A stretch of 64,000 nt of DNA from Alphaproteobacteria bacterium (lineage in GTDB: Bacteria > Pseudomonadota > Alphaproteobacteria > UBA6615): NCBI GenBank assembly GCA_028279245.1, contig JANQOE010000039.1:66916-130915 (forward strand). Reading direction: 5' to 3'. The stretch's first letter is position 1. Each line of letters opens with the position of its first letter. This document shows, piece by piece, positions 8,673 to 34,467 of the stretch. A program made the position numbers and the translations under genes. A model generated the notes under the pieces. The model was not told the DNA's origin. It saw only the letters and a program-made list of their open reading frames with translations, and made no database searches.

Positions 8673-10037
8673 ATGGCCCGATTTGTCCTGGTCTCAAACC
8701 GTGTGCCCCTCCCGGGCCAAGAATCCGCAACCTCCTTCACCGCCGCCCTAACCGCCTCCCTCCGCAGCCACGATTGCCTCTGGTTCGGCTGGAGCGGCAA
8801 ACTGAGCGATAGCCCGAGTCTCGACGTGCGGGTCACGAAACGGCGCCATCTGACCATCGCTACGGTCGATCTCGGGCAGCGCGACTATGACGAATACTAC
8901 AACGGCTATGCTCACCAGACGCTGTGGCCCCTGTTCCACTATCGCCCGGGTCTGACGTCCTACAACCGCGCCTACTACGCGGCCTATCACCGGGTCAACG
9001 CGCTCTTCGCCTCCCAACTCGCCAAGATACTTCGCCCCGACGACATGGTGCTAGTGCAGGACTATCACCTCATCCCGTTGGGCGAGGAGCTGCGGAAACT
9101 CGGCTGTAAGGCCTCGGTCGGCTTCTTTCTGCACATACCGTTCCCGGCGCACCAAGTTCTGGCGACGTTGTACAACCATCGCCGCCTCATCCGATCGATG
9201 CTGGCCTACGATTTGGTGGGCGTACAGACAGACGCCGACCTCCAGGCGCTACGCGACTATGTTGAGCGTGAATTGGCAGGCACCACAACCGTCACCGAAG
9301 TTACCGTGGACGGGCAGACGACCCGCATCTGCGCGAGGCCCTTCGGCATCAACGTCGAAGATGCAAGACAACAGCCCGAGACCCCGGCCGGCCGCCGGCA
9401 GGCTGAAAGGATGGAACAGAGTTTGGCCGGCGGCAGTCTGATCGTCAGCGCCGATCGCCTTGACTACACGAAGGGGTTGGCGGAGCGGCTTGCAGCTTTC
9501 GAGACACTGCTCGAACATCATCCGGAGCATCGCCGCCGCGTAACAATGATGCAAACCGTCATCGCGTCCCGGCGTCCAGGCGTCGCCGAGTATGATGAGC
9601 TGCGCCGCCGGCTGGAGATCGAAGCGGGTCGTTTGAACGGACGCTATGCCGAGTTCGATTGGATCCCGCTCCGCTACATTTACAAGCGGGTCAGTCGCAG
9701 CGCGACCGCCGGCCTCTTTCGCGTTGCGCGGATCGGCCTGATGACCCCGCTGCACGACGGCATGAACCTGCTCGCCAAGGACTTTGTCGCGGCACAGGAT
9801 CCGGACGATCCGGGGGTACTCGTTCTGTCGCGTTTCGCCGGTGCGGCACAGGCGTTGTCGAGCGCATTGATCGTCAATCCATACGACACACTCGAAACAG
9901 CAAACGCCCTACACGTTGCCCTAGAAATGCCACTCGACCAACGCAAAGCCCGTTGGGCATCAATGATGGATGCAATACGGCGTGACAGCGCCGAGGCATG
10001 GTTCGCCGGCTTCGCTCAAGAACTCGCACTGAAATAA
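8673..10037 (+). CDS. otsA: Alpha,alpha-trehalose-phosphate synthase (UDP-forming), GT20
   Basis: MARFVLVSNRVPLP... , ...FFLHIPFP..., ...DGMNLLAKDF... hallmark OtsA motifs. Confidence 0.9.
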   Translation: MARFVLVSNRVPLPGQESATSFTAALTASLRSHDCLWFGWSGKLSDSPSLDVRVTKRRHLTIATVDLGQRDYDEYYNGYAHQTLWPLFHYRPGLTSYNRAYYAAYHRVNALFASQLAKILRPDDMVLVQDYHLIPLGEELRKLGCKASVGFFLHIPFPAHQVLATLYNHRRLIRSMLAYDLVGVQTDADLQALRDYVERELAGTTTVTEVTVDGQTTRICARPFGINVEDARQQPETPAGRRQAERMEQSLAGGSLIVSADRLDYTKGLAERLAAFETLLEHHPEHRRRVTMMQTVIASRRPGVAEYDELRRRLEIEAGRLNGRYAEFDWIPLRYIYKRVSRSATAGLFRVARIGLMTPLHDGMNLLAKDFVAAQDPDDPGVLVLSRFAGAAQALSSALIVNPYDTLETANALHVALEMPLDQRKARWASMMDAIRRDSAEAWFAGFAQELALK

Positions 10038-10217
10038 ACAGTAAGAAAGAGTGACTTGGTTGGTCGGCGCACGGACCCATTATTAGGTGCGTTGGACCGA
10101 GAGTTAGGCGATGGCTTATATTACTGAACGGACTTTCAAAGCGCGGCCGGCACGCGGCGAGTGGTTGAGGCGCTACGTCAGACGAATCTCGCGACTAATG
10201 CGGTCGTTCAGAGCACC

Positions 10218-10469
10218 CTAGCGGCGATCCCAATTCATGGCATTCGGCAAAGGCAGGTTGTCGTTTGCCGGAATGCCACGGCGCCGGCCGGCCGGTGGCA
10301 AAACGCGATCCTTGCGGAGTTCGGCGACCGTCGCCTCAAGCTGCGCGACATTGGCCCGCAACTCGCGAATACGGCCGTTAAGCCGACTGATGACCGAACG
10401 ATAGCGCTCCTGCGCAAGGCGCGGCGGATAAATGATATCGAGAATGCGCGATCGGATGTACCGAGCCAC
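10218..10469 (-). CDS. Hypothetical coiled-coil small protein (83 aa), weak
   Basis: GTG start; RIRELRANVAQLEATVAELRKD coiled-coil; overlapping + strand ORF 10161..10520 equally unsupported. Confidence 0.2.
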   Translation of the reverse strand: MARYIRSRILDIIYPPRLAQERYRSVISRLNGRIRELRANVAQLEATVAELRKDRVLPPAGRRRGIPANDNLPLPNAMNWDRR

Positions 10470-10658
10470 AACTCACCTTCCCCACCATTTTCTTTTCTTT
10501 CGCAGGGAACAGTGCGCTGATTCGATGAACTGAGTCTCGTGACAAAGATCGGTACGGTTACCCTTCGGAAAGGGCGATATCGGCAGCCGACGGGCTGTTG
10601 GTAGCTATCCTTCGTGGGTCCACATCCCGGATGCCTACGGCAACACCTGTTGGGACCC

Positions 10659-11804
10659 CTAAGTTTCAACCCGTTGCGGGCGCACCCAAGAACCTGTTCT
10701 CCCACACCCCTGCGATTGCCGAAGCTGTATCGCCTGCTCGTACAGCCTAACACATCGCTCTGTAACGGCCGGCCAGGCGAATGAGCGGGCAAATGCCTGA
10801 GCACGTCGGCGGTCAGACGAGGTGGTTCGGCGCATCAGCGCCTCAAGTCGCACTACCACCTCTCCAGTGTCCTCGAAGTCGATCGCCGCCCCGACCTTTG
10901 CATCACGCACAAGCTCTGTGAAAGAAGCATTGTTGTGCACCAGCGGCACCAGTCCGACCGACATGGCCTCAATGAGGCTCATGCCAAACCCTTCATAATC
11001 GGACCCGGAGCAATAGAAGCCACATTGCTGCGCGATCTCGCGCAGGCGGCTCTTCGAAACGGCCCCATGAAAGACCACCGCCGACGACACGCCCAACGCG
11101 GACGACACCTCTTCAAGTGCCGCGCAAGACACATCCCACTCTGGGCCAACGACATGAAGCCGAGAGTTCACGCCAAGCTGAAGCAGTTCGGCAAACGCGC
11201 GGATGACACGATCCACTCGCTTGTGACTGGCCAATCGGCCCAAACACAATATGTCGGATCCCGCCCCGATAAATAACCCAATCGGTTCCACACCATTCGG
11301 CAACAGCGAGACTCTGCGGTGAATGCTCTGAAACCGCGTTAGGTCATTCTCGCTGTTGGCCAACAGGCAAGAGTACGCGCGGCATGTCCGTGCGGTCACA
11401 TGTTTGAGATAGGTTCGCTTGGCCCGCGCCATGAAATCGGTGTGAAAGAACCCGCCATGCGTCGTCGCCACCAATGGTGCCTTGGGCGGTAACAAGCCTA
11501 GGATATCAAAGAAACTGTCTGTCGAGTGCACATGGACGATGTCCCGATCCGCCAGCAGCTTTCGATATCCGAAAGGCATGAATAGGCGTCGCCCGCCAAA
11601 GAAAGGGACCCGAGCGACGCGCACGCCGTCGACAGTATCAGCAACGGCGAGTCTCGTTCTGTCTCCAAACACCCGATCGAGGGTCAGTAGCTCACAAGAC
11701 AAACCAAGTTGTTGCTGATGCGTGGCCAAGGCTGCGACATAGTTCTCGAGGCCGCCGATTGACGGTGCAAACTGACGCACAACGTGCAGAACGCGCAATG
11801 ACAT
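10659..11804 (-). CDS. Glycosyltransferase family 4 (GT-B, RfaG-like)
   Basis: MSLRVLHVVRQFAPSIGGLENYV N-term and C-terminal ...SGSDYEGFGMSLIEAMSVGLVPLV... EX7E-type motif. Confidence 0.85.
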   Translation of the reverse strand: MSLRVLHVVRQFAPSIGGLENYVAALATHQQQLGLSCELLTLDRVFGDRTRLAVADTVDGVRVARVPFFGGRRLFMPFGYRKLLADRDIVHVHSTDSFFDILGLLPPKAPLVATTHGGFFHTDFMARAKRTYLKHVTARTCRAYSCLLANSENDLTRFQSIHRRVSLLPNGVEPIGLFIGAGSDILCLGRLASHKRVDRVIRAFAELLQLGVNSRLHVVGPEWDVSCAALEEVSSALGVSSAVVFHGAVSKSRLREIAQQCGFYCSGSDYEGFGMSLIEAMSVGLVPLVHNNASFTELVRDAKVGAAIDFEDTGEVVVRLEALMRRTTSSDRRRAQAFARSFAWPAVTERCVRLYEQAIQLRQSQGCGRTGSWVRPQRVET

Positions 11805-13162: not shown

Positions 13163-15373
13163 CTAGCTGCTCGCACCGCTTGCCGTCGAATAGTAATCGG
13201 CGCACTTGCCATGGCCGTAAAACGAACCGGCGTCGCCATACCCATACCCCGACATGACGCGCGCATTCACCTGGGTCATCACGCAACCCAAAGCCTTGGG
13301 TTCCGACTCAAGCAACAGCTCCACCGCAGACTGAGCAACCCGACGCCGTGTTTCTTTCCACTTGACCAGAAAGACCGTGGAATCGGCCACCCGCGCCAGG
13401 ATGCGCGGGTCAACCACGGCAAGTACGGGAGGCGCGTCGAGAAAGATAACGTCGAAGTCTTGCCGCAGGCGCTTGAGCATCTTGGGGATGCGAACGGTCT
13501 GTAGGAGTTCTGCGGCAGTAGGGCTTGCCTGGCCAGCGGTGACGAACATAAGGTCACTCTGCTCGTCCTTATGGGCTGCCAACTCCGCCTCCGTTTCCTC
13601 CTCCAGGTACTCCGCCAAGCCGCGATGATTGGGAACCCCCAGCACCTCGTGCAGCCGCGGCCGCCGCAGGTCGCAATCGACGGTCAGCACTCTGTGTCCC
13701 ATGCCGGCCATCGCCCGTGCCAGACCGACAGTGGTGGTCGTCTTTCCTTCGCCAGGTAGGGAGGATGTAACCAGCACCACTTGAGAGGTGCCCTCGGACG
13801 TCCGCAAGAGCAAGGACGCCCGGATCCCGCGCATCGCCTCGGCAAAACTCGAACGAGACCCCGTCTTTTCGAGGAGTGCGGCCTGGTCACGGGCTGCTGC
13901 CCGGACTTCCGGTATCTGCCCCAACACCGGCAGCCCCAGCACCTGTCGCAACTCCCTCGACGTGCTGAATGACAGTTGATCCAACCGCTCGATCACAAAC
14001 ACAAGCGCCGGCCCAAGCAGCAGCGCCAGCACCAAAGCTCCAGCCAGCAACACTGGCTTGTTCGGCGCACTCGGCCGGCTCGGCACGCTAGCATAGGAAA
14101 CGACCCGCGCATCGGCCTGCTGGATACCATCTTGGATTGTTGTTTCTTTGAATCGGGCAAGAAAAAGCTCGTAGAGCCGCCTATCGGCTTCCGCGTCTCG
14201 CTCCAGCGCACGAAGCTGCACGCCGGCGAGGCTGGCATCGGTCGCCACTGCCTCAAGCTCCTGCACGCGTTGTCCCAGCGTCGACACACGCGACTGCGCG
14301 ACGCGCACCTCTGACGAAAGGTTCTCGACGACCCTCTCCACCTCCTCGTCGATCTTTGTTTGCAGAATAGTGCTCTCGGCGCGGACCTTTTCCCAAACGG
14401 GGTGCTCCGGGCCGTACTGGACGGAAAGCTCAGCCTCACGCTGTGACATCGCGACGGCGTCGTTCCTGAGGTTCTGAATCGGCGTGGAACCTAGAACCGC
14501 CGCAATCGTATCGATATCCGCGCCGGACAACCCCTCGGCCTCACGGAGGCGCGCTTCGGCTTCGGTGGCCAGCGCCTCGGCGCCGGCCAGTTCTGCGTTC
14601 AACCGCGACAACTGCTCGATCAGCAGCGGTGCTTGGACTCCCTCGACCAAACCAACACGCGCACGGAAGTCCTCGATCTCCCGTTCGGATCCTTGCACCG
14701 TCGCCTCAAGCTCGCTCAGACGCTCATTGATCCAATCAGTCGCCCTTCGGGTTGCGTCGAACTTGTTCCTTAGCTGGGACTCAATGTACCGGTCGGCGAC
14801 CGCATTAGCGGCGGCGGCCGCGTTTGCCGCGCTAAGAGCATCGAACCGAACCGATATCACATTTGACCGCTGCACTTGCCGTACAGTCAGATGGCTCAGA
14901 AACCGGTCCACGGCACCCGACCCCGTAGCCTCCGGTTGACGAGCACCCTGCACCTCGGCACCCAGCGTGTCCGCCAGGTCGCCAACAACAGCCTCCGCAA
15001 TCGTCCGGGATCGAATAACCTGGACCTCACCCGTGATAGCGGCTGTATCGTCTGAGAGTGCAGAAGCGACTTTCTCGATGCCGACAATGTTGTCGGAGGC
15101 TGGTTCAATCTGGATCAGCGACTCAGCCGTGTACACCGGCTTGGCGAACTGCAGGTAGACAACCGCAATCGCAAGAGTGACTGAAATCGACGAGAGAAGC
15201 ACGAAGCGCCGACGCCAAAGCATGCGAAAGATCTCATCGAGATCGATCTCGTTGGGAGAACCGGTACTGATCTCGTATGAGTGGTAATCAGGTCCGGAAT
15301 AGGGTTGCGCGTGCCCAGACGCGTGGACGCCAACAGGTGAAAGAGAGGCATCGGCCATAAGAGTTACCGCCAA
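13163..15373 (-). CDS. Polysaccharide co-polymerase / BY-tyrosine autokinase (Wzc/ExoP/GumC-like)
   Basis: Wzz-type N-terminal TM plus long coiled-coil periplasmic domain, second TM, cytoplasmic kinase with Walker A SSLPGEGKTTTT and C-terminal Tyr cluster GYGYGDAGSFYGHG..YY. Confidence 0.9.
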   Translation of the reverse strand: MAVTLMADASLSPVGVHASGHAQPYSGPDYHSYEISTGSPNEIDLDEIFRMLWRRRFVLLSSISVTLAIAVVYLQFAKPVYTAESLIQIEPASDNIVGIEKVASALSDDTAAITGEVQVIRSRTIAEAVVGDLADTLGAEVQGARQPEATGSGAVDRFLSHLTVRQVQRSNVISVRFDALSAANAAAAANAVADRYIESQLRNKFDATRRATDWINERLSELEATVQGSEREIEDFRARVGLVEGVQAPLLIEQLSRLNAELAGAEALATEAEARLREAEGLSGADIDTIAAVLGSTPIQNLRNDAVAMSQREAELSVQYGPEHPVWEKVRAESTILQTKIDEEVERVVENLSSEVRVAQSRVSTLGQRVQELEAVATDASLAGVQLRALERDAEADRRLYELFLARFKETTIQDGIQQADARVVSYASVPSRPSAPNKPVLLAGALVLALLLGPALVFVIERLDQLSFSTSRELRQVLGLPVLGQIPEVRAAARDQAALLEKTGSRSSFAEAMRGIRASLLLRTSEGTSQVVLVTSSLPGEGKTTTTVGLARAMAGMGHRVLTVDCDLRRPRLHEVLGVPNHRGLAEYLEEETEAELAAHKDEQSDLMFVTAGQASPTAAELLQTVRIPKMLKRLRQDFDVIFLDAPPVLAVVDPRILARVADSTVFLVKWKETRRRVAQSAVELLLESEPKALGCVMTQVNARVMSGYGYGDAGSFYGHGKCADYYSTASGASS

Positions 15374-15558: not shown

Positions 15559-16332
15559 GTGAAGGCAGTCATTCTCGCCGGCGGCGTTGGCAGCCGCCTA
15601 GCCGAAGAAACACAGACTCGACCCAAACCGATGGTTGAAATCGGCGGGCGGCCGATTCTGTGGCACATCATGAAGTTGTACGAACATCACGGGGTCTGCG
15701 AATTCATCATCTGCGCGGGATACAAGGGTTATCTAATCAAAGAGTTCTTTGCGAACTACCATCTGCACAACGCGGATGTGACGATCGACCTTGCGACCAA
15801 TACCATCGAGTACGACGCTGGACGTGTCGACCCATGGCGCGTCACGATCGCCGACACCGGCGACACGACAATGACCGGTGGGCGTCTCCGGCGCATTGCG
15901 CGGCACCTTGATCCGGAAGAGACCTTCTTGCTGACCTACGGCGACGGAGTTGGCGACATCGACATTCGGGCTAGTATCGAGCATCACTACCGCGCGGGCC
16001 GCAAAGCCACTGTTACTGTGGTCGCACCGCCCGGCCGCTTCGGCGTGACGAGCCTTGACGGTGATCGGGTCCAGGCTTTCACCGAGAAGCCGCTGGGCGA
16101 AGGCGGCCGTATCAACGCGGGCTTCTTTGTTTGTGAGCCATCGGTGATCGAACTGATCGACAACGACCAAACGATATGGGAGCAAGGCCCGCTAACGACG
16201 CTGGCTGAACAAGGCGAACTGACCGCTTTCACCCACGATGGGTTCTGGCAGCCTATGGATACGCTGCGCGACCGCAACGATCTCGAACGTCATTGGGCGT
16301 CCGGCAACGCGCCGTGGCAAGTGTGGCGATAG
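15559..16332 (+). CDS. rfbF: Glucose-1-phosphate cytidylyltransferase
   Basis: ORF 15457..16332, start refined to GTG ~15559 (VKAVILAGGVGSRLAEET...PKPMVEIGGRPILWHIMK); 258 aa matches RfbF not RmlA length. Confidence 0.85.
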   Translation: MKAVILAGGVGSRLAEETQTRPKPMVEIGGRPILWHIMKLYEHHGVCEFIICAGYKGYLIKEFFANYHLHNADVTIDLATNTIEYDAGRVDPWRVTIADTGDTTMTGGRLRRIARHLDPEETFLLTYGDGVGDIDIRASIEHHYRAGRKATVTVVAPPGRFGVTSLDGDRVQAFTEKPLGEGGRINAGFFVCEPSVIELIDNDQTIWEQGPLTTLAEQGELTAFTHDGFWQPMDTLRDRNDLERHWASGNAPWQVWR

Positions 16333-16344
16333 CCCCCCAGCGCA

Positions 16345-17418
16345 ATGAACACCGGGCCTACGATTGATCGCAAGCTATGGGACGGCGCGCGCGTGCTCCT
16401 CACCGGGCACACGGGTTTCAAGGGTGCCTGGTTAAGCCTCTGGCTCGAGCATCTAGGGGCAAAGGTTTTTGGCTTTGCACTCGCGCCCGAGCATGAGAAA
16501 TGCGTGGCCAATCTCGCCAGATGCGGTGGCGATCGGAGCATCATCGGCGACATCCGTCAGGCGAGCGCGGTCAATGAGGCCGTTACGGCGGCGGCCCCGG
16601 ATATCGTCCTTCATATGGCCGCCCAACCCCTCGTTCGACTCGGCTTCCGCGAACCGGTGACCACCTTCGACACAAACCTCATGGGGACAGCGAATCTACT
16701 GGACGCGCTGTACCGGCATCACCAACCACGCTGTGTCCTGGTGATCACCAGCGATAAGGTCTACGCGAACGACGGGACTACCGGCGCCTTCTCCGAGCAA
16801 GCGCGGCTCGGCGGCAAGGAGCCATACGGCGCCTCCAAGGCATGTCAGGAGATCATCACCACGGCGTATGCGGAGAGCTACCTGCGGCCGGCCGGCATAC
16901 CAGTCGCGACCGCACGTTCCGGCAATGTCGTCGGTGGCGGCGATTGGGCGGCCGACCGTTTGGTGGGCGACGTGGTCCGCGCTCTCGAGGAAAACGGATG
17001 CGTGCGGCTGCGAAATCCGGCATCCACCCGGCCATGGCAACATGTCCTCGACCCTTTGTTCGGGTACATTCTGTTTGTTCAACAACTCCTGACTGGCGAC
17101 GCGCCGGAAACGCTGAACTTTGGGCCGAGGACCTCTCATTCTGTTGCCGTCGTGGCCGAAGAGCTTGCGGGTCTGCTTGGCGTTCGTGTCGAGCGCGAAA
17201 GCGTCATGCCGGACCGCGAACCGCAAGCGCGCGAAGCCATTACTCTGGATGTTGATCCCACCGCCGCACTCCACGAACTTGGCTGGACCACGCAGATCGA
17301 TCTGAAAACGACCCTACGCTGGATCGCCGATTGGCACCTTCAGCATCGCCACGGCGCGGACATGCGACAGGTGACCCTTAACCAAATCACCGCCTACGAA
17401 GAACGGCTTGGTCAGTGA
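16345..17418 (+). CDS. rfbG: CDP-glucose 4,6-dehydratase
   Basis: ...LLTGHTGFKGAWLSLWLEHLGAKVFGFAL... and YGASKACQE catalytic YxxxK; 357 aa. Confidence 0.85.
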   Translation: MNTGPTIDRKLWDGARVLLTGHTGFKGAWLSLWLEHLGAKVFGFALAPEHEKCVANLARCGGDRSIIGDIRQASAVNEAVTAAAPDIVLHMAAQPLVRLGFREPVTTFDTNLMGTANLLDALYRHHQPRCVLVITSDKVYANDGTTGAFSEQARLGGKEPYGASKACQEIITTAYAESYLRPAGIPVATARSGNVVGGGDWAADRLVGDVVRALEENGCVRLRNPASTRPWQHVLDPLFGYILFVQQLLTGDAPETLNFGPRTSHSVAVVAEELAGLLGVRVERESVMPDREPQAREAITLDVDPTAALHELGWTTQIDLKTTLRWIADWHLQHRHGADMRQVTLNQITAYEERLGQ

Positions 17419-18650
17419 GCAGCGCCCCAACCTGTCGCAGTTGCGGCGCAAATCTCAGATTGACCCTGATCGATCTCGGCCCCATGCCGTTGGCGAATGC
17501 GTTTCTCTCGTCAGCGGATGAGATCGCCGCGGAGCGCACCTACCCGCTCCATGCACGAGTTTGCGAACAGTGCTTCTTGGTTCAGGTCGACGACGTGGTC
17601 CCGCCGGAGGAAATCTTCACTGACTACGCCTATTTCTCTTCATATTCCGAAAGCTGGATCGCCCACGCCAAGGCCTACGCAATGCGGGTCACGGATCGCC
17701 TCAACCTGACCAAGGATAGCCTCGTTGTTGAGATTGCATCGAACGACGGATATCTGCTCCGTCACTTTAAGGAGGCGGGCATCCCGGTCCTCGGCATCGA
17801 GCCTGCGGCCAATGTCGCCGCCGCGGCGACGGCTCAAGATATCCCGACAGAAGTGCTGTTCTTTGGGAAGGCCACAGCCACCAGTCTGGCAAAGAAGCAC
17901 CGCCAGGCAAACTTGATAGTCGCCAACAACGTCCTCGCCCACGTCCCGGACATCAACGACTTCGTCGCGGGCATGCCCCAACTACTGGCCCCCGACGGAG
18001 TGGTCACACTAGAGTTCCCTCACCTCCAGAACCTGATTGAGCAAGTTCAGTTCGATACGATCTATCACGAGCACTTCTCTTATCTCTCCCTGTTCGCAAC
18101 CGAACGACTATTCGCACGACACAAGCTTCGGGTGTTCGACGTGGAGCAGCTCTCGACCCACGGCGGCTCGCTCCGGCTCTGGGTTTGCCATGCGGATGCC
18201 AAACACGCGCCGTCAACAGCCCTAGCGGAAACAAGGGCGCAAGAAGAAACCGCCGGACTCACCGACGTCCGTACCTACGCAGCATTCGGTGCAGCCGCGA
18301 ACAATGTACGCCTCGGGCTACGGCAGTTCCTGGACGAGGCCCGTGAGGATAGGAAACGGGTCGTTGCCTACGGCGCGGCAGCTAAGGGGAACACCCTGCT
18401 AAACAGCTGCCACGCCAGCACTGAAGACATCGAGTTTGTCGCCGACCTGAACGAGTTCAAGCAAGGCCGGCTGCTCCCCGGAAGCCACATCCCGGTTCGC
18501 GCACCACAGGCGATCTACAATGCCCGACCCGACTATGTTCTGATCCTGCCTTGGAACCTCACGGACGAGATAACGGAGTCCCTGGCAGACATCCGGGAAT
18601 GGGGCGCCCAGTTCGTTGTCGCGGTACCGCGGACAACGATACTTCCGTGA
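17415..18650 (+). CDS. NDP-hexose C-methyltransferase (TylC3/EvaC-like: N-terminal Cys4 zinc domain + class I SAM MTase + C-methyltransferase C-terminal domain)
   Basis: N-term CRSCGANLRLTLIDLGPMPLANAF...ARVCEQCFLVQV zinc-ribbon, ...YLLRHFKEAGIPVLGIEPAANVA... SAM fold, ~410 aa typical of sugar 3-C-methyltransferases; start overlaps rfbG stop. Confidence 0.75.
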   Translation: MSSAPTCRSCGANLRLTLIDLGPMPLANAFLSSADEIAAERTYPLHARVCEQCFLVQVDDVVPPEEIFTDYAYFSSYSESWIAHAKAYAMRVTDRLNLTKDSLVVEIASNDGYLLRHFKEAGIPVLGIEPAANVAAAATAQDIPTEVLFFGKATATSLAKKHRQANLIVANNVLAHVPDINDFVAGMPQLLAPDGVVTLEFPHLQNLIEQVQFDTIYHEHFSYLSLFATERLFARHKLRVFDVEQLSTHGGSLRLWVCHADAKHAPSTALAETRAQEETAGLTDVRTYAAFGAAANNVRLGLRQFLDEAREDRKRVVAYGAAAKGNTLLNSCHASTEDIEFVADLNEFKQGRLLPGSHIPVRAPQAIYNARPDYVLILPWNLTDEITESLADIREWGAQFVVAVPRTTILP

Positions 18651-19177
18651 TCTTTCAGAACACGCCGATCGCCGGCGTCACGCAGATCGAGTTCGAGCCC
18701 GTCGAAGACGAGCGAGGTAGCTTTGGTCGGGTGTTTTGCGAGACCGAGATGGCGGATCACGCCTTTCCTTTTGACATCCGCCAAATCAACCGATCGACCA
18801 ATCACCGCGTCCATACGCTTCGCGGACTGCATTACCAAGCAGCGCCAAAGCCCGATCCAAAGATCGTCCGCTGCACCCGAGGGCAGATCTGGGACGTCGT
18901 CGTCGACCTGCGCCCCGAATCATCCAGCTATCTGGCTTGGTACGGCACAACCTTGACGGCCGAAGCCAGCAACGCGCTCCTGATCCCGGGCGAATGCGCC
19001 CATGGCTACCTGACACTCAGCGACAACACCGAGCTGCTATACCTCATGGGCGAAGTCTACGTGCCAGAGCTCGCGCGGGGGGTGCGTTGGGACGATCCAG
19101 TGTTTGGCATCGATTGGCCCGCCACCCCGCAGGTTATCGCACCGCGCGACGCGGCTTATCCCGACTTCCGCCTGTGA
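18647..19177 (+). CDS. NDP-4-keto-6-deoxyhexose 3,5-epimerase-like cupin (RmlC/RfbC family)
   Basis: ORF 18551..19177; GTG 18647 overlaps upstream TGA; ...EDERGSFGRVF... and ...HGYLTLSDNTELLYLM... RmlC motifs. Confidence 0.75.
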   Translation: MIFQNTPIAGVTQIEFEPVEDERGSFGRVFCETEMADHAFPFDIRQINRSTNHRVHTLRGLHYQAAPKPDPKIVRCTRGQIWDVVVDLRPESSSYLAWYGTTLTAEASNALLIPGECAHGYLTLSDNTELLYLMGEVYVPELARGVRWDDPVFGIDWPATPQVIAPRDAAYPDFRL

Positions 19178-20091
19178 GAATTCTCATCACCGGCGGCACC
19201 GGCTTCATTGGCCAGCACGCGGTCGCCGCACTCGCGGATACGGAACACGAGCTGGCCATTGTCTCCAGAAACGCCCGACCCGACGAGGGTCGGACGCGCT
19301 TTGTACGCATAGATCTGCTCGATCCCGAAGCGCCTCGGTCAATGCTGCAAAGAGAACCGCCGACCCACCTGCTCCACCTCGCTTGGGAAACCGCGCACGG
19401 GCACTATTGGACCGCACCCGAAAACACGGCCTGGGCTGATGCGACCTGCAGGCTGTTGACCGACTTCTTCGAGTACGGCGGCGTGCGGGCGGTCGCGATC
19501 GGCACCTGCGCTGAATACGACTGGATGGTGCCAGGCAAGGCTGCCCTCTCTGAGTATAGCGCCAGACTGTCCGCGGATACGGCCTATGCCCGCGCGAAAC
19601 TGTCGGCCTATGAGCACGCGGAGAAGCTGCGCGCTAGTGGGGCGTCGGTGGCCTGGTGCCGGCTATTCTTCCCGTATGGGCGGTTTGAGCCCGCTGAACG
19701 CTTCATTCCCGCCGTGACCCGAGCGCTGATCCAAGGCGAACCAGCCAAGATGACCAACGGCCGGCAAGCCAGAGACTTCATGGCCGCCCGCGACGTCGGA
19801 CAAGCCTTGGCTGCCGTCCTCGCCGGCGATGTCTCAGGCGCCATCAACATCTCCAGCGGGTTTGCCACGCCATTGATCGATGTGGCCAGGGAGATCGGGC
19901 GCGCGTTGAACCGGGAGCACCTGCTGCGGCCGGGCGCGCTCCCCGGGCGTCCTGGCGACCCGGCATTCTTGGCTGGCGACAATCGGCGGCTAGCGACCGA
20001 GGTCGGCTTCACCCCTCGGATCACCCTGCCGGAAGGAATCGCAGACGCGGTCACATATTGGCGGGGCGAATTGCAGCAAACGGCACGTTAG
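19174..20091 (+). CDS. NAD-dependent epimerase/dehydratase family protein (probable NDP-sugar 4-ketoreductase)
   Basis: ORF 18937..20091; GTG 19174 overlaps upstream stop; ILITGGTGFIGQHAVAAL Rossmann motif, YxxxK (YARAK). Confidence 0.75.
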   Translation: MRILITGGTGFIGQHAVAALADTEHELAIVSRNARPDEGRTRFVRIDLLDPEAPRSMLQREPPTHLLHLAWETAHGHYWTAPENTAWADATCRLLTDFFEYGGVRAVAIGTCAEYDWMVPGKAALSEYSARLSADTAYARAKLSAYEHAEKLRASGASVAWCRLFFPYGRFEPAERFIPAVTRALIQGEPAKMTNGRQARDFMAARDVGQALAAVLAGDVSGAINISSGFATPLIDVAREIGRALNREHLLRPGALPGRPGDPAFLAGDNRRLATEVGFTPRITLPEGIADAVTYWRGELQQTAR

Positions 20092-20108
20092 TGCTAGACG
20101 GCACAGCT

Positions 20109-20891
20109 ATGTCTAATGGGGCCGGCGTGATAAGCATCGATTTTGAGGAGCAGGTCGTCATCGTGGCCGAAGACGGTGACCGGCGGGTCATCCCGCTCGC
20201 CTCACCCGAGGCCTTTGCGGCGGCGTCACGTGCGTGGCTCCGATGCGGCTGGGACGTGAAGCACGCCTATACCTTTAGCTGGCTCGGCCGCCCGATAATC
20301 CAGCTTCCCGAGGATATGGTCCGTGCCCAGGAGGCCATCTTCGCCGTTAAGCCGGACCTGATCATCGAGACTGGCATCGCCCATGGCGGCTCCCTCATTT
20401 TCTATGCGAGCCTTTGCAAGGCGATGGGGCGCGGCCGTGTCATTGGCGTGGACATTGAGATACGGCCGCACAACCGTACAGCCATCGAAGCCCACGAACT
20501 GTTCGATTACATCACGCTTTATGAGGGCAACTCCACCGACCCGCAGATCGTGAGCAAAGTCTCCGCCGATGCCGAGGGGGCCGAAACCGTGATGGTCTTC
20601 CTCGACTCCAACCACACCAAGGCGCATGTGCTGGCAGAGTTGGCAGCCTATGCCCCCCTAGTATCGGTCGGCTCTTACGTCGTTGCGGCCGACGGCATCA
20701 TGGAGCAACTCGTCGGTGCGCCAAGAAGCAGCCCCGATTGGGGAACGGACAACCCGCGGCAGGCCGCAATCGAATACACGGCGGCCAACCCCAACTACGT
20801 GATCTCCCAGCCCGACCTCACTTTCAACGAAGGTAACGTCAGTACGCCCGTAACCTACTGGCCGGACGGCTGGATCAAACGCGTCGACTAG
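20109..20891 (+). CDS. CmcI/cephalosporin-hydroxylase-family class I SAM methyltransferase (sugar O-methyltransferase-like)
   Basis: ORF 20058..20891, ATG 20109; ...PDLIIETGIAHGGSLIFYASL...VMVFLDSNHTKAHVLAEL... matches CmcI/MtfB-type rhamnosyl O-MTases. Confidence 0.7.
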   Translation: MSNGAGVISIDFEEQVVIVAEDGDRRVIPLASPEAFAAASRAWLRCGWDVKHAYTFSWLGRPIIQLPEDMVRAQEAIFAVKPDLIIETGIAHGGSLIFYASLCKAMGRGRVIGVDIEIRPHNRTAIEAHELFDYITLYEGNSTDPQIVSKVSADAEGAETVMVFLDSNHTKAHVLAELAAYAPLVSVGSYVVAADGIMEQLVGAPRSSPDWGTDNPRQAAIEYTAANPNYVISQPDLTFNEGNVSTPVTYWPDGWIKRVD

Positions 20892-21953: not shown

Positions 21954-23579
21954 GTGGTCAGAGAACCGATGCCAAATTCGGCCACATCTGCGTCGCCAAT
22001 CCACTGCCTGATCATCGATGATGACGAGGACGAGGTGATGCTGGTCGACTCTTGCTTGCGCGATATCCCTGATATCGCCTCGACCGTGACATGGCAGCCG
22101 AATCCCGAGAAGGCCATGGTTGAGCTTCAGTCAGGTTCGTTCAACCTCTGTTTCGTCGACTACTCACTCGGTGCGACCAACGGTTTGGAGTTCATCCAGC
22201 AGGCGGCGAGCGCCGGCGTCGGTATGCCGATGATCCTCCTCACCGGAGCGGACCATCCGGAGATCGAGGCTGCCGCCGCGGCCAGCGGTGCCGTCGATTT
22301 CGTCGCAAAGTACGATTTGTCGCCACCGACACTCGCCCGCGCCATCCGCTTCGCCGTTGCCGGCCAGAAGGAGGCGGAAGAGCTAAAGCGCAAGACGACG
22401 GAACTTGAGACCGCGGTCGAAGCGCTCGCCAATGAACGAAGCTTGCTCCAGCAGGCGATGGACCACACCAAGCATGGCATCGCCATGTTTGACGAGAAGC
22501 AGCGTCTTATCACCTCAAACGCGCGTTATCTGGAGATCTACGGGTTCTCACCGGATGTTGTCCGACCCGGAACCGACCTCACGGCCATCTTGCGCTACAG
22601 CATTTCCCTCGGGAACTATTCCCAAGAAGAGGGTCGACGCTTGTTGAAGGAACGCTCGCGACAAGCCGCATCTACCCGCCCCTCCACCTACCAGCAGCGA
22701 CTAAGCGATGGCCGAACAATCAGCGTCGATCATGCACCCATCAGCGGCGGCGGCTCCGTAACCACCTGTGAAGACATTACCGAAACACTTAAGAAGCAGC
22801 AGGAGTCGGCTGCCCTGGCCAGCAGCGCAGCTCTGGCGGATGCCGTGTTGGCCTCCAAATCGCGGTTCCTGTCAAACATGAGCCACGAGCTGCGGACTCC
22901 ATTGAACGCGATTATTGGTTTCAACGATATCTTTCGCCAACAGATCTTCGGGCCAATCGGCAGCAAACAATACGAAGCCTATGCCGAAGATATTGGCAGG
23001 AGCGCGGCAGCCCTCCTTCAGACAATCGACCAACTGCTCGACATGTCGCTGCTCTACAGCGACCAAACCGCACTCGACGAGCACGAATTCGAGCTGTCGG
23101 ACGCCCTTCAGCATGCCGTTCGTCTTCACGAGGGCGCCATCGAGGAAAAAGGCATCACCCTGAAGACGAACCTGGCTGCAGGCTTTTCCTTTTATGGGGA
23201 CGAAAACAAGATCACGCATGCCGTCGACTGTCTGCTCGACAACGCCATCAAGTTCAGCTACCCGGCCAGCAAGATCTGCGTCAACCTCGCAACAACCAAG
23301 GATAGTGGCGCACTCATTGAGATCTCAGACGCCGGTCCGGGAATACCCGCGGACCAGATATCAGATCTGCTGACACCATTCGAACAAGCGGAGGCCGCCG
23401 ATTGTCGATCCAATCACGGGTCTGGTCTGGGATTGCCCATCGCCTCGGGCTTGATCCGCCTACACGGTGGCGCTTTAGATATCTCAAGTGCGGAGGAAGG
23501 TGGTACAACCGTCCAAATCCTGCTTCCACCCGACCGGATCTCTTTCGCCGCCCGAGCGGCGGTTGGCCGCAGGAAGTAG
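21954..23579 (+). CDS. Hybrid sensor histidine kinase (N-terminal REC, PAS, HisKA, HATPase_c)
   Basis: IHCLIIDDDEDEV...D (REC), PAS core NARYLEIYGFSPDVVRPG..., H-box MSHELRTPLNAIIGF, G-boxes DAGPGIP / GSGLGL. Confidence 0.85.
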   Translation: MVREPMPNSATSASPIHCLIIDDDEDEVMLVDSCLRDIPDIASTVTWQPNPEKAMVELQSGSFNLCFVDYSLGATNGLEFIQQAASAGVGMPMILLTGADHPEIEAAAAASGAVDFVAKYDLSPPTLARAIRFAVAGQKEAEELKRKTTELETAVEALANERSLLQQAMDHTKHGIAMFDEKQRLITSNARYLEIYGFSPDVVRPGTDLTAILRYSISLGNYSQEEGRRLLKERSRQAASTRPSTYQQRLSDGRTISVDHAPISGGGSVTTCEDITETLKKQQESAALASSAALADAVLASKSRFLSNMSHELRTPLNAIIGFNDIFRQQIFGPIGSKQYEAYAEDIGRSAAALLQTIDQLLDMSLLYSDQTALDEHEFELSDALQHAVRLHEGAIEEKGITLKTNLAAGFSFYGDENKITHAVDCLLDNAIKFSYPASKICVNLATTKDSGALIEISDAGPGIPADQISDLLTPFEQAEAADCRSNHGSGLGLPIASGLIRLHGGALDISSAEEGGTTVQILLPPDRISFAARAAVGRRK

Positions 23580-23867: not shown

Positions 23868-25391
23868 TCAGAACTGATAGTAGAGGAATGTCGAATGGCT
23901 CTTTATCGATGCGATGGCTATGACAAACGCCACGGCCGTCGCCACCGCCCAGTTCGGCGATGCTCTCCAGAGCATCCACCGCCGTACCGGACTCTCTTCG
24001 GACGGTTGGGGGTCTGAACTGACCCAGTAGTTGCGCAGTATGTCCTGCGTATTCGGCAGCATCACGACAATCATCCCAAGCGCAAGTATCAAGGATAAGG
24101 CTGGAACGAGGTCCAACTGGACAATACCCGCCTGCACCAGACCGTCACCGAACAGGTAGGATACCCCCCACATGCTGGCCAATATCGTTCCGGCAACATC
24201 CAGATTCGGTGCTCGGAAGACGACCAGTGAGCTCACGACCACAGACATGGTGATCGCCCACCCGGCAAGCGGATGCAGCGTCGGTAGCTTGAACTCTCGC
24301 CAGCCATGGTTGATGGCCAACGCAAACCCATGGATCAAGCCATAGACCACCATGGTCCAACCTGCACCATGCCAAATACCCGCGATCAGGAAGGTAAAGA
24401 TGACCGGCCATGCGGCCGTTGCGAAAAAGCGGTGGACCGGACCGTACTCATTCGCCATCGCGCGGCGCAGGTTCTTCATCGCCATCGGCGTGAATAAATA
24501 GGTGGTGAAGAATCTGGTCATCGTCATATGCCACCGATGCCAGAAGTCTTGAATGCTTGTCGCCTTGAGCGGCGAGTTGAAATTGAGCGGTAGCTTTATG
24601 CCGAACAGGTATCCAAGACCGACCGCCATATCGGAATACCCGGAGAAGTCGAAATACAGCTGGAGTGTATAGCAGAGGGCTCCCACCCAGGCGGTAAGTG
24701 GTTCGATCCCCCCACCAGCGGCAACGCCGCCAAATGCCTCATTCGCAAAGGGGGCGATCGTGTCGGCGAAAACGACTTTCTTGAACATCCCCATACAGAA
24801 GATGGTCAGCCCAATGATCACCCGCGACGACGAGAACGCACTGTCGTCTCGGTCCTTCATCTGCCGGAAGAACTCGCTCTGCAGCACGAGAGGACCTGCC
24901 GTTACACAAGGGAAGAACGTCGCGAACAGAGCATAACGGTCAAAAGACGGACGTTCTGCCGTTCCATTGTAGGCCTCAACCAAGAAGCCTATCTGAATGA
25001 ACGTATAGAACGAGATCCCGACAGGAAGGATAAGGTCGAGGTGACTAAAGCCGGTTCCGGCGACCCCGTTCACTGTCTCGATGAGGAAGTTCGTGTACTT
25101 GAAATAGCCAAGAGCAATGATGTTGCCCGCCACAGCAGCAATCAACAGAAGCTTAGCCGTCGCCTGCCGGTTTCGAAGCTCAACAATTGCGTTCGCAACC
25201 GCGAAGTTCGCCAGCACTGACGCCGCCAGCACTGCAACTAGCAGAAGGCTCCAGTGCGCGTAGAAAGCGAGTGACGCGGCGGCCAGATACGGATACACGG
25301 CCCGCCAGCCACCAACTCGATGGATGATGAGAAAGCCGATATAGGCAAGCGGGAAGAAGACGAATATGAACTGAAAAGAATTGAAGACCAT
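23868..25391 (-). CDS. MBOAT family membrane-bound O-acyltransferase (AlgI/DltB-like)
   Basis: ORF 23868..25523; start refined to ATG 25391 (MVFNSFQFIFVFFPL, canonical MBOAT N-terminus); multi-TM, conserved His region ...WHRWHMTMTRFFTTYLFTP... Confidence 0.85.
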   Translation of the reverse strand: MVFNSFQFIFVFFPLAYIGFLIIHRVGGWRAVYPYLAAASLAFYAHWSLLLVAVLAASVLANFAVANAIVELRNRQATAKLLLIAAVAGNIIALGYFKYTNFLIETVNGVAGTGFSHLDLILPVGISFYTFIQIGFLVEAYNGTAERPSFDRYALFATFFPCVTAGPLVLQSEFFRQMKDRDDSAFSSSRVIIGLTIFCMGMFKKVVFADTIAPFANEAFGGVAAGGGIEPLTAWVGALCYTLQLYFDFSGYSDMAVGLGYLFGIKLPLNFNSPLKATSIQDFWHRWHMTMTRFFTTYLFTPMAMKNLRRAMANEYGPVHRFFATAAWPVIFTFLIAGIWHGAGWTMVVYGLIHGFALAINHGWREFKLPTLHPLAGWAITMSVVVSSLVVFRAPNLDVAGTILASMWGVSYLFGDGLVQAGIVQLDLVPALSLILALGMIVVMLPNTQDILRNYWVSSDPQPSEESPVRRWMLWRASPNWAVATAVAFVIAIASIKSHSTFLYYQF

Positions 25392-25396
25392 ATCGA

Positions 25397-26683
25397 CTAT
25401 CGCCTGTCTACCGGCCGTGCAACGGGCCTTCCTGCGGTGGCATGCCCCCGATAGCCATTCAGAACACGCTGGAGGCAGTCCGGGTTCGAATGTTCCGCAT
25501 CGATGTACATCTCGGCCGTACATCCAAGATCATGGGGGTTGAAACTGCCGATGACCTTCAGGCCGAAGCGCTCCGCAAACCCGACTGTCAATTGCTCGAT
25601 TTCGGCCAAACCCGCCATATAGGCCGATCCTTGAAGTGAGTCGTAGTAGATCGGGTTGAACGGCGGATGTGCCAGGTACACTTCAACGTCCCGATCCTGC
25701 AGAAACTGAAGTAGCATCTCGAACTGCGCAACGCCGGCCGAGTCGATCTTCGGCGGGTCGTTGCGGCGTTGCGCCGCAAACGCCAAGGCGCCCGATCTCG
25801 CAAACTCCCGCGTGAACAACGCGTCATGTTCCCGAGACCAAATGATCGACCCATCCGGGCGAAGTATGTCGAGGGTATCGTGCTTATCCGCGTCGGTGAC
25901 GTGCGGCAAAACAGGTGCCGCAAACCACCGTTCTACATTGTCTTTCAAGACCACAAGGGAGATCGCATTACGTAGTTGCGGCACGGGTATCAGTTCACTT
26001 ATTGGCCGCCGGTCGATGTCCAGCCGGCGCGACATATCGCGGTAGTCCGGGATCGTCGGGACCCAGAGAAAGTCGGTGCGGTCCTCTACAGGGGTGAACA
26101 GATTGTCCCTGATGGTGATGATCATTGCTTGCGGCAGACGATTGTTCCGGACGAACATCTCCGTCACCGACAGCATGTCCTCGTAGTAATCTCTGTGAAC
26201 ATGTGCATTGTACATGTTGACTTCGGGGATCAGCCCAGCATGGCCTTCCTGCCAGTGACTGGCGCCGAGGACGGCCACGTCGGGTGTCTCCGAAAGCGAA
26301 GCAATATGCTCGCGACGAAGGGCCCGGCTCTCAATGTTCAGATCAAAGGTCGCGTAACTGCGGCCCGACGCAAGTACGTCCGCCACCTCGACCGCAGTGT
26401 TCGGGTTGAACAACAGCGGCGCGAATCTGGCGTTCCCCCCAGCAACCGCGACCAGGCCAAGAACCAGGAAGATGCCGAGCAGGAACAGATACAATACCGG
26501 GTTGGCAACGATGCTTGGATCGACTTCATGAGCATCGACGATCCCGATCTTGGCGAGGTCCTCCTCGCGTCGACCGATCTCGGCCCGCGGCAACAATCGT
26601 CTGTCCGGGTGATTTTCAGAACGGAGATTGTCGTCTCCGAAGTTGGAGTCAGATGTGGACACGTCCTGCCCTTGAGTACCCAA
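25397..26683 (-). CDS. Membrane-anchored periplasmic protein, candidate DltD/AlgJ-like (SGNH-like) partner of MBOAT
   Basis: Cytoplasmic N-term, single TM PVLYLFLLGIFLVLGLVAVAGG, ~340-aa periplasmic domain with VAVLGASHWQEGH block; position immediately upstream of MBOAT mirrors dltD/algJ logic; homology not verifiable by eye. Confidence 0.5.
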   Translation of the reverse strand: MGTQGQDVSTSDSNFGDDNLRSENHPDRRLLPRAEIGRREEDLAKIGIVDAHEVDPSIVANPVLYLFLLGIFLVLGLVAVAGGNARFAPLLFNPNTAVEVADVLASGRSYATFDLNIESRALRREHIASLSETPDVAVLGASHWQEGHAGLIPEVNMYNAHVHRDYYEDMLSVTEMFVRNNRLPQAMIITIRDNLFTPVEDRTDFLWVPTIPDYRDMSRRLDIDRRPISELIPVPQLRNAISLVVLKDNVERWFAAPVLPHVTDADKHDTLDILRPDGSIIWSREHDALFTREFARSGALAFAAQRRNDPPKIDSAGVAQFEMLLQFLQDRDVEVYLAHPPFNPIYYDSLQGSAYMAGLAEIEQLTVGFAERFGLKVIGSFNPHDLGCTAEMYIDAEHSNPDCLQRVLNGYRGHATAGRPVARPVDRR

Positions 26684-32964: not shown

Positions 32965-34467
32965 GTGGTCGTGGCGAACCAACCAATCAGGATCCTGCTC
33001 GTCGAAGACGACGAGGACGACTACATCCTAACGCGCGGTCTCATCCAAGAGATTGATGGAACCGACAGGTTCGAGTTGCGTTGGGTGGCCGACTACAAGT
33101 CCGGCCTCGAAGCTCTCGCACGCTGCGAGGCAGACATCTGCCTCGTCGACTATTATGTCGGCGGGAAAAACGGATTGGATCTGGTGCGGGAGGCCCGGCG
33201 AAATGGCTGCGACGTGCCGACGATACTTCTGACGGGAAGGGGCGATAGAGAAATAGACATCGCTGCGATGGAAGCCGGCGCGGCCGACTACCTGGAGAAA
33301 ACCGAACTTAGCCCACGTCTCCTGGAGAGAACAATTAGATACGCCATTGCAGAAGCAAAGGACCGTCAGACAATTCTAGAGCGCGGAGCTTTACTTCAGG
33401 CAACGCTAGATTATACGGGAGCCGGTATCGCGACATTTGATCGAGATATGAACCTGCTAGCTCATAACGATAGTATTCTAAGCATGCTCGGCATGACGGC
33501 TGACAGCCCAGAACAGTCAGCTGATCAGAAAGAATCGCGCATCGGCCAGAATATCTCAACAAGCCTCGACCTGGTTCGGCACACACGCGAAGGACGCGAG
33601 ATCATCGCGCGGAGTGGCAGAGTCATAGAAGTTCGCAGCAACAAGATGCCAAACGGTGGCCTGGCAACGATCTGTATCGACATAACGGACCGAAAGAAAG
33701 CGGAAGAAATCCTGCTCAAGTCAAAGAACGAAGCGGAAGCGGCGAGCCGGGCCAAATCAGAATTCCTTGCGAATATGAGCCACGAGCTTCGCACGCCGCT
33801 CAACGCGATTATTGGTTTCACCGAAGTCATGATGGCCCATAACACATCGGTCTCGGAGGAGTCGGCGCACAGTTATCTGGGACACATCCTTGATAGCGGT
33901 AAGCACCTTCTCGCTGTTATCAATGACATACTGGATGTCTCTAAGATCGAAGCCGGCAAGTTTGAGATCGACGAAATTGAACTGGATCCCGCAGAAGTCG
34001 TACTCAGCAGCATCCGGCTAATCTCGGAGCGAGCCAAGCAGTCGAACGTCACAGTCACGACTAGTACGCAACCAAGAACCCGCGAACTCTATGCCGACGA
34101 ACGAGCCCTAAAACAGATACTTTTGAACCTGCTCTCCAACGCCATCAAGTTCACGCCTGCTGGTGGTTCCGTTTCTGTAGACCTCGTCACCAGCGACTGC
34201 GGCAGCTTGGATCTTGTCGTGGCTGACACAGGCATCGGCATTGCGGAAGCGGACATAGAGAGGGTTTTGACACCATTCTACCAGATCCAATCGACGCTCT
34301 CCCGGTCGCACCAGGGCACCGGCCTAGGACTGGCCCTAGTTAAGTCGCTGGCAGAGCTGCACGGGGGTAGCGTATCGATCGCCAGCAAGGAGGGCGCTGG
34401 CACGCAGGTGCGGGTTCGTTTTCCCAAGCATCGGGCGAACCTCGCAACGCACCGCGCCTCAGCCTAG
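32965..34467 (+). CDS. Hybrid sensor histidine kinase (N-terminal REC, PAS, HisKA, HATPase_c)
   Basis: IRILLVEDDEDDYILTRGLI...D (REC), PAS with KMPNGGLATICIDITDRK, H-box MSHELRTPLNAIIGF, G-box GTGLGL. Confidence 0.85.
   Translation: MVVANQPIRILLVEDDEDDYILTRGLIQEIDGTDRFELRWVADYKSGLEALARCEADICLVDYYVGGKNGLDLVREARRNGCDVPTILLTGRGDREIDIAAMEAGAADYLEKTELSPRLLERTIRYAIAEAKDRQTILERGALLQATLDYTGAGIATFDRDMNLLAHNDSILSMLGMTADSPEQSADQKESRIGQNISTSLDLVRHTREGREIIARSGRVIEVRSNKMPNGGLATICIDITDRKKAEEILLKSKNEAEAASRAKSEFLANMSHELRTPLNAIIGFTEVMMAHNTSVSEESAHSYLGHILDSGKHLLAVINDILDVSKIEAGKFEIDEIELDPAEVVLSSIRLISERAKQSNVTVTTSTQPRTRELYADERALKQILLNLLSNAIKFTPAGGSVSVDLVTSDCGSLDLVVADTGIGIAEADIERVLTPFYQIQSTLSRSHQGTGLGLALVKSLAELHGGSVSIASKEGAGTQVRVRFPKHRANLATHRASA

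Follow-up and report, generated by a model that had tools for sequence, protein, structure and literature searches.

A CDP-sugar operon predicted to supply a C-methylated and O-methylated 6-deoxy sugar to an alphaproteobacterial polysaccharide locus

Which sugar is made by an operon in which genes for cytidine diphosphate (CDP)-activated sugar synthesis are joined to two methyltransferase genes, an epimerase gene and a reductase gene? The question is raised by positions 15559-20891 of a 64,000-nucleotide (nt) stretch from Alphaproteobacteria bacterium (assembly GCA_028279245.1, contig JANQOE010000039.1, positions 66,916 to 130,915), which as a whole is called the window here. An earlier reading of the same DNA, referred to below as the original prediction, had proposed a complete CDP-hexose pathway at this place. 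On sequence evidence, the operon lies in a compact polysaccharide locus with an ExoP-like co-polymerase, and its product is probably a CDP-activated 6-deoxy sugar of the L-series with a C-methyl and an O-methyl group, destined for a surface polysaccharide.

Organisation of the operon

Six genes on the forward strand occupy 15559-20891, outer limits that are identical to those of the original prediction and that were taken from a listing of open reading frames (ORFs) and direct reading of the sequence. A glycosyltransferase gene follows them.

15559-16332 (+), rfbF, glucose-1-phosphate cytidylyltransferase, 257 amino acids (aa), GTG start; TIGR02623, 417 bits
16345-17418 (+), rfbG, CDP-glucose 4,6-dehydratase, 357 aa; TIGR02622, 381 bits
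17415-18650 (+), S-adenosylmethionine (SAM)-dependent nucleoside diphosphate (NDP)-hexose C-methyltransferase with an N-terminal Cys4 zinc domain, 411 aa; PF08421, PF13489, PF08484
18647-19177 (+), RmlC-like NDP-4-keto-6-deoxyhexose epimerase, 176 aa; PF00908, 181 bits
19174-20091 (+), short-chain dehydrogenase/reductase (SDR), putative CDP-3-C-methyl-4-keto-6-deoxyhexose 4-reductase, 305 aa; PF01370
20109-20891 (+), CmcI-family SAM methyltransferase, putative sugar O-methyltransferase, 260 aa; PF04989, 241 bits
20898-21821 (+), GT2 glycosyltransferase, candidate transferase for the modified sugar; PF00535

The six-gene set (RfbF, RfbG, zinc-domain C-methyltransferase, RmlC-like protein, SDR and CmcI-family protein) had been read in this way before, and profile scores and coordinates agree with it; the Pfam and NCBIfam family scores of all six are far beyond chance. 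The stop/start overlaps had been described as being of both GTGA and ATGA type. Overlaps of 4 nt with the sequence GTGA were found at three junctions (17415-17418, 18647-18650 and 19174-19177) and ATGA at none, the other two junctions being gaps of 12 nt (rfbF/rfbG) and 17 nt (SDR/CmcI-family). The second gap becomes a 1-nt overlap if GTG 20091 is the start of the CmcI-family gene. The GT2 gene begins 6 nt past the CmcI-family stop codon and is part of the same unit, a seven-gene operon of six sugar genes and GT2. A promoter and terminator scan gave no promoter-like sites, and terminator-like sites at chance level. Megablast of the operon DNA against plasmid sequences returned no match.

The CDP-sugar entry steps

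RfbF would convert glucose-1-phosphate and CTP (cytidine triphosphate) to CDP-D-glucose, and RfbG would convert this to CDP-4-keto-6-deoxy-D-glucose. Both predicted steps are backed by equivalog-level matches, with 417 bits against the NCBIfam cutoff of 300 bits for TIGR02623 and 381 against 278 bits for TIGR02622, and the GTG start of rfbF yields an end-to-end alignment with TIGR02623. A glucose-1-phosphate cytidylyltransferase and a CDP-glucose 4,6-dehydratase in one operon are also found in the cereose/cillose-type pathway of Bacillus cereus. Neither RmlA nor RmlB is encoded in the window, and from this context the C-methyltransferase would be supplied with a substrate derived from CDP-glucose, and not with the deoxythymidine diphosphate (dTDP)-linked substrate of enzymes of the TylC3/EvaC/TcaB9 type.

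The absence of a 3-dehydrase (DdhC/E1), noted in the original prediction, holds across the whole 64 kb, where a DegT-family probe gave a best tblastn E value of 2.8. No PF01041 protein was present among the annotated ORFs of the window and no sugar-gene paralogues were found elsewhere in it; an E3 reductase of the ddh/asc pathway was not found in the window either, although no E3-specific probe was made. A CDP-3,6-dideoxyhexose cluster was considered and rejected because of the lack of E1 in the window.

The C-methyltransferase

The third protein has a three-domain architecture, with scores of 81 bits for PF08421, 60 bits for PF13489 and 194 bits for PF08484. When 15 homologues were aligned, the zinc-site residues C7, C10, C50 and C53 were invariant, as were Y71, H176, Y217, E219 and H220, which align with Tyr76, His181, Tyr222, Glu224 and His225 of TcaB9, presumably the active-site and catalytic residues of that enzyme. 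Full-length alignments were obtained with the solved relatives MtmC (E 1.6e-90), KijD1 and TcaB9, and every solved relative found methylates a sugar at C-3. The actinomycete dTDP enzymes are only 35-39% identical, and in a neighbour-joining tree these fall outside the large clade that holds the window enzyme. The proposed function as a sugar C-methyltransferase is supported by these comparisons: clustering with non-sugar methyltransferases, which according to the original prediction would have refuted it, was not observed, and the enzyme groups with the sugar C-3 methyltransferases. A non-sugar methyltransferase was considered and dismissed in view of the domain architecture, the conserved residues and the genomic context.

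Methylation at C-3 is predicted by analogy with the characterised enzymes nearest to this one, the best argument being the match to the enzyme of a B. cereus cassette. This cassette, the plasmid locus L088, consists of exactly rfbF-rfbG-methyltransferase-SDR, and full-length comparison with the window gave identities of 55% for RfbF, 38% for RfbG, 50% for the C-methyltransferase (over 404 aa) and 31% for the SDR. With L088 taken as the equivalent of the assayed operon, the window would share the zinc-domain C-methyltransferase of the cereose/cillose-type pathway. Li et al. 2017 (J Biol Chem 292:7636) are said to have described a B. cereus four-gene operon with the activities of a cytidylyltransferase, a 4,6-dehydratase, a C-methyltransferase and a 4-reductase, which reportedly makes CDP-cereose and CDP-cillose, i.e. 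3-C-methyl-6-deoxy-gulose and -allose. The references of PMC7725333 cite Li et al. 2017 on the four-gene operon, and its text assigns CDP-cereose and CDP-cillose to a single pathway, in which the C-4 reduction sets them apart. In Sinorhizobium meliloti, the pSymB genes SMb21416-18 have long been annotated as ddhA, ddhB and 'NDP-hexose 3-C-methyltransferase' (PMC4053727). The earlier statement that 3-C-methyl-6-deoxyhexoses, named there as known chemically from the lipopolysaccharide of some alphaproteobacteria, lack a fully assigned gene set does not stand beside these two cases.

A 4-keto group is flanked by both C-3 and C-5, and the enzyme might act at C-5 like NovU/CloU of noviose synthesis, which would give a 5-C-methyl (gem-dimethyl) 6-deoxyhexose. 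NovU-type enzymes have the same domain architecture and work with the RmlC-like NovW, whose structure (2c0z) shows relatedness to the window epimerase (E 6e-23). All solved relatives of the methyltransferase are, however, C-3 enzymes, the closest characterised-type cassette, that of B. cereus, is reported to yield 3-C-methyl sugars, and to our knowledge 5-C-methyl sugars are confined to the aminocoumarin antibiotics. Methylation at C-5 is considered very improbable, and C-3 is retained as the predicted position.

Epimerase and reductase

All four catalytic motifs of RmlC (RGLHYQ, KIVR, LLY and WDDP) are common to the window epimerase and the solved RmlC 7pvi. The protein scores 137.9 bits with TIGR01221, the dTDP RmlC equivalog, which is below the cutoff of 155.75 bits. 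This score agrees with a different reading, in which the RmlC-like protein is only a 3-epimerase that acts before methylation, or works on another substrate, and in which the product would be an O-methylated sugar of the cereose/cillose type (3-C-methyl-6-deoxy-D-gulose or -D-allose). RmlC-fold mono-epimerases exist (NovW, EvaD and ChmJ), and a ChmJ-type 3-epimerase (4hn0) was among the structure matches. The retention of the four motifs argues against it, as does the distribution of the gene. Of the 80 best loci of a genome scan for C-methyltransferase relatives, 60 were evaluable, with at least 3 kb on both sides; an RmlC-like gene was present in 44 of these 60, mostly immediately downstream of the C-methyltransferase gene, whereas the Bacillus D-series cassette is without one. 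This pattern suggests that the epimerase distinguishes the two products. A D-series product is thus regarded as quite unlikely, and inversion at C-5, leading to the L-series, remains the preferred assignment.

The SDR carries a glycine-rich GGTGFIG motif and a YxxxK motif (YARAK). The best solved relative is the guanosine diphosphate (GDP)-6-deoxy-D-lyxo-4-hexulose (GDP-4-keto-6-deoxymannose) reductase 2pk3 (E 2.5e-16), but a role as 4-reductase is better supported by the full-length match to the SDR of L088 (E 2e-61). The window would therewith possess a dedicated, putative SDR 4-reductase like that of the cereose/cillose-type pathway.

The CmcI-family methyltransferase

Membership of PF04989 is clear from a score of 241 bits (cutoff 23 bits). 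An exact sequence look-up of the 260-aa product found no identical record. The CmcI-like subfamily is very large, with at least 8000 homologue clusters in a protein search. Six close homologues were sampled, 61-67% identical and all on long contigs, and in all six a zinc-domain C-methyltransferase gene adjoins the CmcI-like gene, in loci of O-antigen type or flagellar loci. Because of this constant neighbour, the enzyme appears to be dedicated to the C-methyl sugar pathway, whatever the final glycoconjugate.

Loci L092 (2784-11442) and L093 (3111-12043) have the order RfbF-RfbG-C-methyltransferase-RmlC-hexapeptide acyltransferase-SDR-CmcI, followed by a large TPR/GT41 glycosyltransferase, and lie inside flagellar gene clusters encoding flagellin, FliD, FliS and FlaG, with FliW also listed among the genes of the flagellar-cluster cassettes. 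L091 (852-12079) is a flagellar locus too, in which there are two CmcI-like copies and a DegT aminotransferase. These cassettes suggest that flagellin is glycosylated with a C-methyl/O-methyl sugar in some uncultured bacteria.

In L090 (2267-10010), L095 (2433-9808) and L094 (4784-8822), a DegT aminotransferase and a GNAT acyltransferase take the place of the SDR, and genes of an ATP-binding cassette (ABC) transporter of the Wzm/Wzt type adjoin. In L094, gene calling split both the adjacent C-methyltransferase gene and the DegT gene into fragments, and a second copy, which is intact, is found at a distance of about 5 kb. This variant predicts a 4-acylamino-4,6-dideoxy-3-C-methyl-O-methyl hexose that resembles kansosamine. 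The N-acylkansosamine of Mycobacterium kansasii combines a 3-C-methyl and a 2-O-methyl group on an L-manno 4-amino sugar. The name of this sugar occurs in PMC4403928.

The position of the gene bears on the stage at which O-methylation would occur. In all loci examined it is part of a nucleotide-sugar cassette and comes immediately behind the SDR or the aminotransferase/acyltransferase step, and this position is the same in ExoP-type, ABC-transporter and flagellar loci. The CDP-vinelose of Azotobacter vinelandii was moreover reportedly isolated already bearing its 2-O-methyl group. These points run against a later role, in which the enzyme methylates after transfer to a lipid-linked or polymeric glycan, or serves in something other than O-methylation. 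Such a role does have precedents, as the characterised sugar-directed PF04989 member, mycobacterial Rv2959c, methylates a glycolipid-attached rhamnose, while CmcI itself, the solved structure of which the window protein resembles weakly (E 3e-8), is part of a hydroxylase/methyltransferase system. It is held to be somewhat unlikely here. Action at or near the nucleotide stage is favoured by the gene position, which falls short of proof.

Proposed pathway and product

The sequence of reactions put forward originally (CDP-glucose, 4-keto-6-deoxy intermediate, C-methylation, epimerisation, 4-reduction, O-methylation) is sound as pathway logic, with conditional assignments from the third step onwards. 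After RfbF and RfbG, the zinc-domain SAM enzyme would methylate C-3, which adjoins the 4-keto group, as homology and context suggest. The RmlC-like enzyme would then invert C-5 to give an L-series 4-ketosugar; because the methylated C-3 is quaternary, epimerisation after methylation would be limited to C-5. The SDR would reduce C-4, the CmcI-family enzyme would add an O-methyl group, most plausibly at O-2, and the adjacent GT2 would move the sugar into a polysaccharide made by an ExoP-type route. If C-3 is assumed to have the stereochemistry set by the Bacillus cereose/cillose enzymes, the C-5 epimer of D-allo is L-talo and that of D-gulo is L-manno, so the simplest product would be an O-methylated CDP-6-deoxy-3-C-methyl-L-talose or -L-mannose.

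Several points weigh against this proposal. Whether methylation precedes epimerisation, how C-4 is configured and where the O-methyl group sits are all deduced. The CmcI-like protein scores 84.5 bits with NF045824, the mycobacterial rhamnosyl O-methyltransferase equivalog, for which the cutoff is 400 bits, and the enzyme might act after glycosyl transfer. L088 is a plasmid copy, whose equivalence to the characterised operon of strain ATCC 14579 is assumed. Genes for Wzx, Wzy, Wza or a priming transferase were not found in the window. As to the vinelose comparison below, the name was not found in the literature searched.

Vinelose is 6-deoxy-3-C-methyl-2-O-methyl-L-talose, isolated as a CDP-sugar from A. 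vinelandii. The CDP-vinelose of this organism was reportedly described by Okuda, Suzuki and Suzuki in 1967/68, on the level of chemistry only, and we know of no gene set reported for it. It is CDP-activated, 6-deoxy, 3-C-methylated, O-methylated and of the L-series, and would agree with the product of the six window enzymes if the C-4 reduction gives the talo configuration. An rfbG gene of A. vinelandii is mentioned in PMC5335844, which cites Gavini 1997 for an altered cell surface upon its loss.

Distribution of the cassette

The original prediction had called a CDP-activated route to branched sugars rare, and this was contradicted by the counts. A protein search with the C-methyltransferase gave at least 8000 homologue clusters at E<=1e-30, many of them about 60% identical, and the genome scan gave at least 599 confirmed relatives, among which, as listed, there was no Azotobacter genome. 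The 80 best loci belong to Alphaproteobacteria, Gammaproteobacteria, Cyanobacteria, Acidobacteria, Nitrospira, Actinobacteria and others. A CDP-type RfbF, called at 45% identity or more and within 10 kb of the C-methyltransferase, was found in 42 of the 60 evaluable loci, an SDR in 21 and a CmcI-like gene in eight. All six genes occurred together in four loci, one of which, Rhizomicrobium L073, is colinear with the window. The order RfbF-RfbG-C-methyltransferase-RmlC-SDR-CmcI is present in L073 and in L002, and in L092 and L093 it is interrupted by the hexapeptide acyltransferase gene.

Related gene sets were also seen in Peteryoungia, Azospirillum lipoferum 4B and Rhodospirillum centenum, and in S. 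meliloti a CmcI-family gene is found together with an SDR at a distance of 8 kb from SMb21416-18. Candidate cultured carriers of the complete cassette are Aurantiacibacter suaedae (L013), Sinorhizobium chiapasense (L058) and R. centenum (L003). On the Peteryoungia desertarenae plasmid (L006, 575-12003), two rfbF-rfbG-C-methyltransferase-epimerase cassettes stand back to back in divergent orientation, and one of them has a DegT aminotransferase and a CmcI-family gene nearby. Beside the cassette of R. centenum there is a second C-methyltransferase paralogue (L003, 9787-10974, minus strand), which is 26% identical to the window enzyme and in which the zinc domain is missing (PF13489 and PF08484 only).

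Cyanobacteria, Acidobacteriota and other metagenome-assembled genomes hold a sub-clade of the C-methyltransferase (L025, L047, L056, L063, L067, L068, L074 and L077-L079). In these loci (match at about 10001-11230) the next gene, at about 11250, mostly encodes a nucleotidyltransferase only 32-37% identical to RfbF, and a different activating nucleotide may be used. On a contig binned as Candidatus Bathyarchaeota (L010, 10001-11236), a C-methyltransferase 52% identical to the window enzyme has no partner genes within 10 kb; either horizontal transfer or erroneous binning could account for it.

Within this widespread and biochemically uncharacterised cassette family, the window is an ordinary member. 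The abundance of the cassette in genomes contrasts with the reported rarity of the sugars: monosaccharides with a 3-C-methyl branch are described as 'quite uncommon' in known glycans in a 2023 review (PMC9912281). The supplement of PMC7725333 predicts the CDP-cereose/cillose pathway in 81 of 12,939 genomes (0.6%). It is tentatively proposed, at less than even confidence, that the six-gene cassette could be the missing gene set for sugars of the CDP-vinelose type and a widespread module in ExoP-type, ABC-transporter and flagellar loci across many phyla. If so, C-methyl-branched sugars would be far commoner on bacterial surfaces than structural glycan catalogues suggest. Assignment of the product would name a common uncharacterised surface sugar, define what the CmcI-like subfamily does in sugar methylation and probably supply the gene set for the old CDP-vinelose observation. 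The practical value of this particular window is modest.

Genomic surroundings

Upstream of the operon, and on the opposite strand, lie three polysaccharide genes.

13163-15373 (-), ExoP-like polysaccharide co-polymerase with a tyrosine-kinase domain, divergent from the operon; PF02706 Wzz, PF13807 GNVR, PF13614
11830-12993 (-), WecG/TagA/CpsF-family glycosyltransferase; PF03808, 185 bits
10659-11804 (-), GT4 glycosyltransferase; PF00534, PF13439

The closest relative found was the ENA metagenome contig L002, in which the C-methyltransferase is 70%, the CmcI-like protein 86% and the GT2 55% identical to the window proteins. GT4, WecG, ExoP, the six sugar genes and GT2 are kept there in window order, and this conservation indicates that the set forms a functional unit.

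A trehalose-6-phosphate synthase gene (GT20, OtsA-like; 8673-10037, plus strand) stands directly upstream of the polysaccharide locus, and in the same place in the Logan contig L001. Further downstream, an MBOAT-family O-acyltransferase adjoins a protein of 399-427 aa without a Pfam match (23868-25523 and 25397-26683, both on the minus strand). The two could form an AlgI/AlgJ-like system for polysaccharide O-acylation; the pair is missing from the syntenic relative L002. Right behind the polysaccharide operon on its downstream side, a stretch of 13 kb encodes three PAS_7-containing histidine kinases, two of them with receiver domains, at 21954-23579 (+), 26903-28867 (-) and 32965-34467 (+).

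Comparison with known systems

With the CDP-3,6-dideoxyhexose pathway (ddhA-D/rfbFGH; abequose, paratose, tyvelose and ascarylose) the window has RfbF, RfbG and the intermediate CDP-4-keto-6-deoxy-D-glucose in common. It differs in the lack of E1 (DdhC) and, with no E3-specific probe made, of E3, and C-3 would be methylated, not deoxygenated. The antibiotic enzymes TylC3, EryBIII, EvaC, MtmC, KijD1 and TcaB9 share with the window C-methyltransferase the three-domain fold, the Cys4 zinc site and the active-site Tyr/His/Tyr/Glu/His set. These enzymes act on dTDP-2,6-dideoxy or 3-amino substrates in secondary metabolism, whereas members of the window clade mostly adjoin a CDP-type cytidylyltransferase. 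The GDP-based virenose pathway proposed for Coxiella burnetii (PMC3539893 and PMC3204966) likewise leads to a 6-deoxy-3-C-methylhexose in a surface polysaccharide by way of a TylC3-like methyltransferase, an epimerase and a reductase. It starts from GDP-mannose, is proposed largely in silico and has no O-methylation, in contrast to the predicted start from CDP-glucose in the window.

The nearest system is the cereose/cillose operon of B. cereus, with RfbF, RfbG, the zinc-domain SAM C-methyltransferase and the SDR 4-reductase in the same order as in the core of the window. The window differs from it by the RmlC-like epimerase between methyltransferase and reductase and by the CmcI-family methyltransferase after the reductase, and with these two additional enzymes its predicted product departs from CDP-cereose and CDP-cillose (D-gulo and D-allo) in being of the L-series and O-methylated. 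The setting is different as well, a polysaccharide locus of Gram-negative type with an ExoP-like co-polymerase as opposed to the spore glycans of B. cereus. The four-enzyme core is thus known from B. cereus and the cassette is common in genomes; to this the window adds an epimerase and an O-methyltransferase, which makes it a variant and no new kind of pathway.

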